From UHGV virus genome UHGV-1840329: a DNA stretch of 10,323 bases. One strand, 5' to 3'. The notes under the pieces were generated by a model. That model was not told where the DNA came from, ran no database searches, and saw nothing but the letters and a program-made list of their open reading frames with translations. Shown here in pieces: positions 5,146 through 5,600 of the stretch. The position numbers and the translations under genes were made by a program. Position 1 is the stretch's first letter; each line of letters starts with the position of its first letter. The DNA is from a virus.

Positions 5146-5298
5146 ATGCAGTGGAAAATCATCAACGGTTGGTACTGCGTTACTGCATGCGGATTCATGA
5201 GCTGGAAGTTCCGCACCTTACAGGAAGGCATTAAGTGGGCTTTCGTCAGCAAAGAAGCTCGCGATGTAGCCAACGATAACGAGATATGGGAGGGCTGA
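5146..5298 (+). CDS. Small Trp-rich protein (50 aa), first gene after pL-like promoter
   Basis: ATG at 5146 with GAGGTAAC Shine-Dalgarno 5-6 nt upstream. Translation MQWKIINGWYCVTACGFMSWKFRTLQEGIKWAFVSKEARDVANDNEIWEG. Stop TGA at 5296-5298 lies 2 nt before the next start. Not in the ORF track, probably under its length cutoff. No family recognised. Confidence 0.4.
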   Translation: MQWKIINGWYCVTACGFMSWKFRTLQEGIKWAFVSKEARDVANDNEIWEG

Positions 5299-5300
5299 TA

Positions 5301-5600
5301 ATGAACGTTAATCAGCAGAAAAATCTTCAAAAAATCATGCTGGCATTCGACAAGGACTACCGCCTGTCAGAACAGCTATATGACCGACAAGTTGAACTGA
5401 TTGAGAGCATCCGACTTCATCAACTGTCCTCAACTTTCGACGTTGTAACAGGCAAAGGCGTTCGTCAGGAAGTGCTGGAGGCTGCTAAAGACAGCCCTGA
5501 GTTCGAAGAACTGATAGATTCCTACCGGCGCGAGGCAATGGCAATTATCGCCCGCTGGGATCTGGCGGATCGGATTGATGGGCAGAGGGAAGCGGCATGA
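5301..5600 (+). CDS. Hypothetical protein (100 aa) upstream of exonuclease
   Basis: ATG at 5301 with GGGAGGG Shine-Dalgarno about 6 nt upstream (the track start at 5286 lies inside that SD). Stop overlaps the exonuclease start as ATGA at 5597-5600. Occupies the position where lambdoid phages carry gam or kil type genes; no sequence similarity recognised. Confidence 0.55.
   Translation: MNVNQQKNLQKIMLAFDKDYRLSEQLYDRQVELIESIRLHQLSSTFDVVTGKGVRQEVLEAAKDSPEFEELIDSYRREAMAIIARWDLADRIDGQREAA

Follow-up and report, generated by a model that had tools for sequence, protein, structure and literature searches.

Two small genes head the early-left operon of an epsilon15-like prophage

We analyzed a 10,323-nucleotide (nt) stretch of DNA, the viral genome UHGV-1840329 (hereafter, the window), with a focus on two small plus-strand genes at positions 5146 to 5600, which we refer to by the lengths of their products as ORF50 and ORF99 (open reading frames, ORFs, of 50 and 99 amino acids). 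A preliminary description of this DNA had placed two uncharacterized genes here, directly after a pL-like promoter and in front of an exonuclease gene, and both proved to be genuine: Each matches a PHROG family, each is an annotated coding sequence in phages phiV10 and epsilon15 and in Escherichia coli APEC O1, and the median ratio of nonsynonymous to synonymous change (dN/dS) across diverged orthologs is 0.21 for ORF50 and 0.16 for ORF99. Both are still labeled "hypothetical" in every source. The features of this part of the window are the following:

4408 to 4992, plus strand: prophage repressor of 194 amino acids with two helix-turn-helix domains and no peptidase domain (Pfam HTH_3 and YdaS-like matches)
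5013 to 5032, plus strand: intrinsic terminator closing the repressor transcript, an 8-base pair (bp) GC-rich stem followed by a T run (annotated terminator in phiV10)
5050 to 5064, unstranded: upstream operator palindrome TTACCTTACGGGTAA, with the motif TTACC-N5-GGTAA
5084 to 5112, plus strand: predicted early-left (pL-like) sigma-70 promoter, TTGACA-17 nt-AATTAT, matching 10 of 12 consensus positions
5112 to 5126, unstranded: downstream operator palindrome TTACCTCAACGGTAA, overlapping the -10 hexamer at its end as well as the expected start site
5146 to 5298, plus strand: ORF50, 50 amino acids, Trp-rich (PhiV10p39, epsilon15 gp37, phrog_898)
5301 to 5600, plus strand: ORF99, 99 amino acids, acidic, predicted all-helical (PhiV10p38, epsilon15 gp36, phrog_856)
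5597 to 6496, plus strand: YqaJ-type 5'-3' recombination exonuclease (Pfam YqaJ, E = 3e-23; phrog_434)
6506 to 7528, plus strand: RecT single-strand annealing protein, 340 amino acids (Pfam RecT, E = 4e-57)

ORF50 runs from an ATG at 5146 to a TGA at 5296 to 5298, has GAGGT at 5133 to 5137, 8 nt upstream of its start, and encodes five Trp residues, as expected from its earlier portrayal as a Trp-rich frame with a good Shine-Dalgarno sequence. ORF99 runs from an ATG at 5301, which homologs favor over the ATG at 5286, to a TGA at 5598 to 5600, and is preceded at 7 nt by GGAGG (5289 to 5293). Its stop codon overlaps the start codon of the exonuclease gene in an ATGA (5597 to 5600), which bears out the proposed coupling of the two genes, while the length of its product had to be corrected from 100 to 99 amino acids. 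The PHROG matches are strong (E = 2e-38 for ORF50 with phrog_898 and E = 2e-54 for ORF99 with phrog_856), and both families are of unknown function. The dN/dS values were obtained with orthologs from the phages BUCT554, PAT1, and phiv142-3 and from prophages of Klebsiella, Citrobacter, Pseudocitrobacter, Erwinia, Kluyvera, and Scandinavium, among which synonymous change was saturated for both genes. Judged by these ratios, both genes are under purifying selection.

The 701 bases around both genes were 100% identical to a guaA-adjacent prophage in E. coli (APEC O1, strain Combat2C1), and the first 601 of these bases were 96 to 97% identical to phage phiV10, an epsilon15-like podovirus of the genus Uetakevirus, and its relatives. 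The region was found in 559 of 5,426 complete E. coli genomes (~10%). By these matches, the window represents the early part of a Uetakevirus prophage of the epsilon15/phiV10 type that sits at guaA in E. coli. The lambdoid framing of the preliminary description thus applies to the early-left slot, where lambda carries gam or kil, with ORF99 directly upstream of the exonuclease and annealase genes as gam is; the phage itself is not a classic lambdoid one, and its repressor gene lies upstream of both small genes in the same orientation, as in Rac.

ORF99 is most likely a distant relative of lambda Gam over its C-terminal two thirds

Word-indexed homolog searches with both proteins returned only close Enterobacteriaceae relatives, and scans of ORF99 against Pfam, NCBIfam, and PADLOC gave no match. 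An exhaustive HMMER profile search with ORF99 against 1.84 billion representatives yielded 32 proteins, all from this one small family and ~100 amino acids long or fragments of such, with no bridge to a named family among them. Direct tests of ORF99 were negative for P22 Abc2, Abc1, Arf, Kil, and C3, for RacC, YdaE, KilR, YdaF, YdaG, and RcbA of Rac, for the other lambda early-left ORFs, and for GamL, Kil, and gp43 of phi80. Lambda Gam emerged from comparisons that used a profile of the ORF99 family, built from an alignment of 17 diverse full-length sequences with identities down to 34% (alignment A4). Against a panel of 30 early-left proteins of lambda, P22, and Rac, lambda Gam was the only notable match (13.6 bits), and among 177,635 distinct PDB sequences, the top two matches of the A4 profile were the lambda Gam chains 5mbv_A and 2uuz_A (E = 0.08, 16.4 bits), where profile positions 29 to 87 were colinear with residues 31 to 90 of GamS. 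For one family member, P0085, the best of 24,736 Pfam models was PF06064 (Gam; E = 0.0042, 17.7 bits), with positions 31 to 94 aligned to positions 33 to 96 of 98. The ORF99 family profile also matched lambda orf63 weakly, at 8.6 bits and, in a panel of 30 sequences, E = 0.004, which is probably due to chance.

A direct alignment of A4 with an alignment of 26 Gam proteins (A5) by hhalign gave a probability of 84% (P = 7.2e-6, 57 columns) at a score of 34.9, as compared to 11.3 ± 2.2 (average ± SD, maximum 19.2) for 200 column-shuffled Gam alignments and to 15.3 and 12.9 for reversed alignments; with the C-terminal halves alone, the probability was 91% (P = 1e-6). The reciprocal searches pointed the same way: The top match of the Gam profile among 400 phiV10 ORFs was PhiV10p38, and among 1,250 ORFs of 13 loci related to the window, ORF99 orthologs took the top three places and 12 of the 22 matches listed. 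The Gam-invariant residues G56, A65, F72, and E74 aligned with G53, A62, F68, and E70 of ORF99, and an "IA(R/H)..(I/L)DS" motif near the C terminus is common to both families. Hence, at the level of profiles, ORF99 is most likely homologous, if remotely, to lambda Gam over the C-terminal two thirds of the latter (GamS 33 to 90). This sets aside the earlier suggestion that ORF99 is a non-homologous analog, and of the statement that neither small protein resembles its lambda counterparts, the part on ORF50 stands, as it has no match to Kil or CIII, while ORF99 does remotely match Gam.

General properties agree with this assignment. Like lambda Gam (GamS, PF06064; PDB 2UUZ/2UV1, 5MBV), ORF99 is a protein of about the same length (99 versus 98 amino acids for GamS), acidic (isoelectric point, pI, 4.86 versus 4.99), and predicted to be all-helical, and its gene lies, like lambda gam, directly upstream of exonuclease and annealase genes in an early-left operon. 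The two differ in the phage that carries them, as ORF99 resides in an epsilon15-like podovirus whose exonuclease is of the RecE or YqaJ type and is paired with RecT, whereas lambda encodes Exo and Bet. In the RecBCD-Gam structure, the dimer body of Gam mimics duplex DNA on the RecB arm, while one N-terminal helix fills the RecB channel for 3' single-stranded DNA, mainly as a steric plug (PMC5218532). In the literature and databases, we found no connection between Gam and epsilon15 gp36 or PhiV10p38; gp36 is still hypothetical in an epsilon15 record annotated with HHpred, and a recent survey that lists Gam, GamL, Abc2, and MuGam as anti-RecBCD types makes no mention of epsilon15-like phages in its text (PMC12315714).

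ORF99 and phi80 GamL share different parts of Gam

The Gam-type protein GamL of phage phi80 offers a close parallel. GamL is treated as a RecBCD inhibitor and has a Gam-like predicted fold with a very different sequence (PMC12315714). It has ~93 amino acids and, like ORF99, is encoded upstream of annealase and exonuclease genes (a RecT-like gene and exo), and it likewise has only part of lambda Gam in common: By hhalign, the similarity of GamL to lambda Gam was confined to the N-terminal helix (residues 1 to 29; probability 92%, P = 8e-7, score 39.3). GamL thus keeps Gam's N-terminal helix, and ORF99 keeps the C-terminal body. ORF99 and GamL did not match each other (hmmsearch E = 0.16 in a set of eight sequences; hhalign probability 0.5%), and lambda Gam is about equally far from both. 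Since the two proteins share complementary parts with Gam, this pattern suggests that Gam is modular, with two parts that can be exchanged separately.

Gene context provides a second connection to phi80. Directly 5' of gamL, phi80 carries a 322-amino acid gene annotated as "Mog (modifier of Gam), anti-toxin for Gam," and gamL itself is annotated as "toxic without Mog." In phage phiv142-3, the gene directly 5' of ORF99 encodes 344 amino acids that are 55% identical to phi80 Mog over the full length (E = 1e-96), and such a Mog-like gene directly precedes ORF99 in five relatives of the window, complete in four and running into the contig end in one:

L005, 2959 to 3993: Mog-like coiled-coil gene of ~320 to 344 amino acids, between ORF50 and ORF99
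L014, 3001 to 3993: the same
L015, 3000 to 3992: the same
L017, 3034 to 3993: the same
L011, 100 to 306: Mog-like gene, partial at the contig end

A Klebsiella phage shows the order Mog-like, GamL, Bet, Exo. Unlike phi80, the window has no Mog-like gene. Relatives of Mog, which have no Pfam family, occur in 166 phage records, many of them from Pseudomonas and Vibrio phages. We regard the link that this context draws between ORF99 and Gam as only moderately strong.

ORF99 is kept beside two non-orthologous recombination cassettes

The gene order repressor, ORF50, an optional gene of ~330 amino acids, ORF99, exonuclease, RecT, and AlpA was found in all 13 related loci examined, of which one is truncated upstream of ORF99 by the end of its contig. 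The same 36 phage records contain both ORF50 and ORF99, and these are all epsilon15-like phages or close mosaics. Downstream of ORF99, there are two non-orthologous forms of the exonuclease/RecT cassette, and ORF99 lies directly upstream in every case. The first form, a YqaJ exonuclease with a 340-amino acid RecT, is found in the window, in a Klebsiella locus (L010), and in an Erwinia locus (L013), and epsilon15 has genes of these sizes in the same slot, a likeness by size only. The second form, a RecE-like PD-(D/E)XK nuclease with a RecT of 293 to 322 amino acids, is found in phiV10, BUCT554, PAT1, and others; in phiV10, the nuclease and RecT are fused into one 586-amino acid ORF. The megablast similarity to phiV10 stops at base 601 of the query, which is position 5600 of the window, where the stop codon of ORF99 ends. 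In the comparison of the cassettes (window 5597 to 7528; L002, L003, L004, L005, and L010 to L017), the mosaic junction falls precisely where ORF99 stops and the exonuclease gene starts. ORF99 itself comes in subtypes, 45 to 53% identical to the copy in the window, which reassort with either cassette: In L010, the YqaJ exonuclease and RecT are 88% and 91% identical to those of the window, and ORF99 is only 50% identical. That ORF99 is kept beside two non-orthologous cassettes suggests a function that is independent of one particular nuclease partner.

These data bear on the idea that ORF99 is an accessory factor for the phage exonuclease and RecT, such as a loader or scaffold akin to P22 Arf or Abc1, and that its likeness to Gam reflects a common helical dimerization scaffold. 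Its constant translational coupling to the exonuclease gene would fit such a role, as would the marginal statistics of the Gam match and the uninformative structure prediction for ORF99. A partner-specific cofactor is, however, hard to reconcile with an ORF99 that persists unchanged beside both cassettes and with subtypes that reassort as freely as in L010, and comparisons of ORF99 with Arf, Abc1, and RacC showed no similarity. We thus consider an accessory role improbable. P22 Abc2, Abc1, and Arf, which target RecBCD or aid recombination, resemble ORF99 and ORF50 in being small proteins of phage recombination modules, with no sequence similarity found.

Weighing a possible Gam-type RecBCD inhibitor against Chi enrichment

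We favor the explanation that ORF99 belongs to the lambda Gam lineage, within which it has strongly diverged, and is likely a RecBCD inhibitor, with ORF50 as a separate, constrained protein that heads the operon, and we assign it a probability of roughly 55%. The two genes head a repressor-controlled early-left operon from which ORF50 would be made first after derepression, and ORF99, translationally coupled to the exonuclease gene, would be made together with the exonuclease and RecT. ORF99 would have kept the helical C-terminal body of GamS, the part of the lambda protein that provides the dimer and the duplex-DNA-mimic surface on the RecB arm, in combination with a different N-terminal helix. 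We infer that it dimerizes, binds RecBCD, and inhibits it, most likely as a dimeric DNA mimic at the DNA-end-binding site of the host enzyme. Such a block would protect linear replication and recombination intermediates and leave the phage Exo/RecT pathway free to operate. The nuclease inhibitor that the preliminary description had offered as one option is hence the favored role for ORF99, with the likeness to Gam attributed to descent rather than to convergence.

If ORF99 were a working Gam-type inhibitor, it would give a function to a gene that is hypothetical in every epsilon15/phiV10-type phage examined, it would complete the recombination module as inhibitor, exonuclease, and annealase, and it might provide an alternative RecBCD inhibitor for RecET-type recombineering. 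An anti-RecBCD gene in a recombination module is what a specialist would expect, and current understanding is not overturned by a Gam relative at this position; what merits following is how Gam, GamL, and ORF99 relate to each other as modules, together with the enrichment of Chi sites described below.

Several observations weigh against this explanation. The ORF99 of the window had no match to the Pfam Gam model even at E ≤ 10, and the best member of the family, P0085, stayed at its 17.7 bits below the 25-bit threshold of PF06064, such that ORF99 is not a Pfam Gam member; each E-value from a single method is marginal. The N-terminal ~30 residues are unlike Gam's N-terminal helix (probability 0.4% over the first 34 columns). 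Structure prediction for ORF99 was uninformative: The model was all-helical, with a long N-terminal helix (residues 3 to 45) predicted at low confidence. Mog-like genes also occur without any Gam nearby, for example in Sf6. Lastly, the phages that carry ORF99 have many Chi sites (GCTGGTGG). In the whole genome of phiV10 (L101), all 8 Chi sites are on the same strand, where shuffling of synonymous codons predicts 1.64 ± 1.21 and 0 of 1000 shuffles reached 8, and in epsilon15 (L102), all 6 are likewise on one strand. By comparison, a survey of 325 lambdoid phages found at least four such Chi sites in only 24 of 202 inhibitor-encoding genomes (PMC12315714). The early-left recombination region is itself free of Chi except for one site inside int (window 9452 to 9459, minus strand).

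The Chi enrichment suggests that ORF99 may modulate RecBCD rather than abolish its activity, or may act at a different stage. Accordingly worded as an alternative, ORF99 could be derived from Gam without being a simple RecBCD block, and could instead be a modulator (compare P22 Abc2 and the Chi response), act transiently, or target another nuclease such as SbcCD, while the phage still profits from Chi-stimulated RecBCD recombination. The co-oriented Chi sites of phiV10 and epsilon15 would be in line with this, as would the finding that Chi-rich lambdoid genomes mostly lack full inhibitors (PMC12315714), and the helix with which lambda Gam plugs the RecB channel is not conserved in ORF99. Gam-encoding lambdoid phages can nevertheless be Chi-rich, since the 24 such genomes include 11 of 27 of the HK75 type (PMC12315714); phi80 GamL, in which half of Gam is replaced, is still treated as a RecBCD inhibitor; and the Chi skew may alternatively stem from selection in the prophage state. 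On balance, we deem a role other than a simple block unlikely. In favor of the inhibitor, we found no other Gam, GamL, or Abc2 homolog in phiV10. Their Chi enrichment, which is unusual for inhibitor-carrying phages, makes these phages suited to probing the reported rule by which a phage carries an inhibitor or else Chi sites.

ORF50 is a strongly constrained protein restricted to one phage group

ORF50 is a real protein, and its substitution pattern indicates very strong constraint. It is conserved in related prophages as part of the gene order described above, stands first in the derepressed operon, and is confined to one phage group. Its N-terminal 25 residues are nearly invariant (MQWKIINGWYCVTACGxMSWKFRTL), whereas the C-terminal tail is variable. 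Over codons 1 to 25, dN/dS was 0.08, with 339 synonymous versus 157 nonsynonymous differences, and the combination of saturated synonymous change with so low a ratio indicates that this N-terminal peptide is conserved as protein and not as DNA. The protein contains two invariant Cys residues (CxxxC) in addition to its Trp residues and has a pI of 6.1. ORF50 is tightly coupled to the next gene, be it ORF99 or the Mog-like gene, through 4-nt overlaps or gaps of 2 to 4 nt.

Homology searches connected ORF50 to no characterized protein. Apart from a weak match to DUF2985, 17 family members had no Pfam match at E ≤ 10, and there was no match in NCBIfam, in PADLOC, or among PDB sequences. All comparisons with lambda Kil (Pfam PF06301), P22 Kil, KilR, phi80 Kil, and CIII by hmmsearch and hhalign stayed below a probability of 1%, no similarity was seen to phi80 gp43, YdaE/F/G, Arf, or lambda orf60a, and no ORF50 homologs were present among the ORFs that adjoin canonical gam in 80 viral contigs. 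The AF2 model was unusable (pLDDT 56). A membrane protein is unlikely, as the maximum Kyte-Doolittle hydropathy over 19 residues was 0.57; the sole membrane hint was a nonsignificant match to a transmembrane segment of mucolipin-2. Of 20 listed RefSeq genomes of E. coli, roughly half have two hypothetical proteins annotated at this place and the rest only one, in which case the missed gene is probably ORF50 rather than ORF99.

What ORF50 does can be approached from its position. By analogy with lambda, it could be a Kil-type division inhibitor or another host-takeover effector, whose invariant N-terminal 25 residues would bind a highly conserved host protein. Its location directly upstream of a gam-like gene, as for lambda kil, its size (50 versus 47 amino acids), and the extreme purifying selection on its N terminus across genera next to a variable tail would all suit such an effector. 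The argument is one of position, as ORF50 has no sequence or profile similarity to any of the four Kil-type proteins compared, and we consider a takeover role the best guess from position, although a doubtful one. ORF50 shares its setting more widely: Lambda Kil and CIII and the Rac proteins YdaG, YdaF, KilR, YdaE, and RacC are, like ORF50 and ORF99, small and promoter-proximal proteins encoded between repressor and recombination genes, and the layout of Rac (repressor, small ORFs, recE, recT, xis, int) is the same, with no homology of any of these proteins to ORF50 or ORF99 by hmmsearch or hhalign. The anti-RecBCD protein gp5.9 of phage T7 is a small acidic DNA mimic, from which ORF50, which is not acidic, differs in pI.

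About as probable, in our estimate, is that ORF50 is directed at the phage itself as a regulator or partner, be it a lysis-lysogeny factor that acts on the two-domain repressor, a CIII analog, or a subunit or modifier of ORF99. Its place as first gene of the derepressed operon with tight coupling to its neighbor, and its occurrence in the same phage records as ORF99, would be consistent with this; yet ORF50 has no similarity to CIII and persists where a Mog-like gene separates it from ORF99, and the co-occurrence may just reflect one conserved operon in one phage group. Less likely still is the joint proposal that ORF50 is the first of a new class of small constrained effectors with a new host target and that ORF99 is a third modular form of Gam, with a lambda-type body and a novel N-terminal helix, which tunes RecBCD in phages that keep co-oriented Chi; were such tuning real, epsilon15-like phages would combine an inhibitor-like protein with Chi-dependent host recombination. 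ORF50 presents a compact, very conserved candidate for target discovery.

Repressor, promoter, and operators

The TTGACA-17 nt-AATTAT element is the best sigma-70-like site between positions 3800 and 5700, which fits the pL-like promoter of the preliminary description as a consensus match, and both small genes are the first after it. The terminator at 5013 to 5032 sits between the repressor gene and this predicted promoter, which is flanked by the two operators at a centre-to-centre distance of 62 bp. The 15-bp motif TTACC-N5-GGTAA occurs seven times in the window, compared to 0.19 expected, and its copies form two pairs at exactly 62 bp (1989/2051 and 5050/5112) and one at 48 bp (4290/4338):

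1989 to 2003, 2051 to 2065, 3953 to 3967, 4290 to 4304, 4338 to 4352, 5050 to 5064, and 5112 to 5126: copies of TTACC-N5-GGTAA

In the epsilon15 RefSeq record, annotated repressor-binding sites coincide with the same palindromes, and three of these sites lie in the interval from the repressor gene to gp37. Annotated repressor-binding sites with this motif also occur in epsilon15 far from the immunity region.

The repressor is the counterpart of PhiV10p40 and of the epsilon15 repressor, for which an HHpred note in the epsilon15 record points to the solved structure of the SPC32H repressor (5d50). As it has no peptidase domain, induction presumably proceeds via an antirepressor and not via RecA-stimulated self-cleavage. 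Separately, a Bro-N antirepressor-like gene is present elsewhere in the phiV10 genome.

An inverted repeat, TTACCTC...GAGGTAA at 5112 to 5140, could pair the ribosome-binding site of ORF50 with a half-site of the downstream operator. A hairpin in the 5' untranslated region that masks this ribosome-binding site was rejected, as its folding energy was no better than that of shuffled sequences (z = -1.2). The 5' arm of the repeat probably lies upstream of the transcription start.

Remaining genes of the window

No Rfam families or tRNAs were found in the window. Its protein-coding genes are arranged as follows:

Minus strand: ead/Ea22-like genes, DUF1064, P-like and DnaT/O-like replication genes, a 70-amino acid ORF, and a 76-amino acid Cro-like gene
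Plus strand, in this order: two-helix-turn-helix repressor, terminator, promoter, ORF50, ORF99, YqaJ exonuclease, RecT, AlpA-type excisionase, 38-amino acid membrane ORF, PerC, MT-A70 methylase, DUF1382
Minus strand, after DUF1382: integrase (int)

The start of the 38-amino acid ORF (7823 to 7939) overlaps the stop of the AlpA-type excisionase gene, and this ORF is the counterpart, conserved in position, of the small "membrane protein" PhiV10p35 / epsilon15 gp32. The DUF1382 protein at 8875 to 9069 is a homolog of lambda orf63, and APEC O1 has a Ser/Thr phosphatase gene in that slot.

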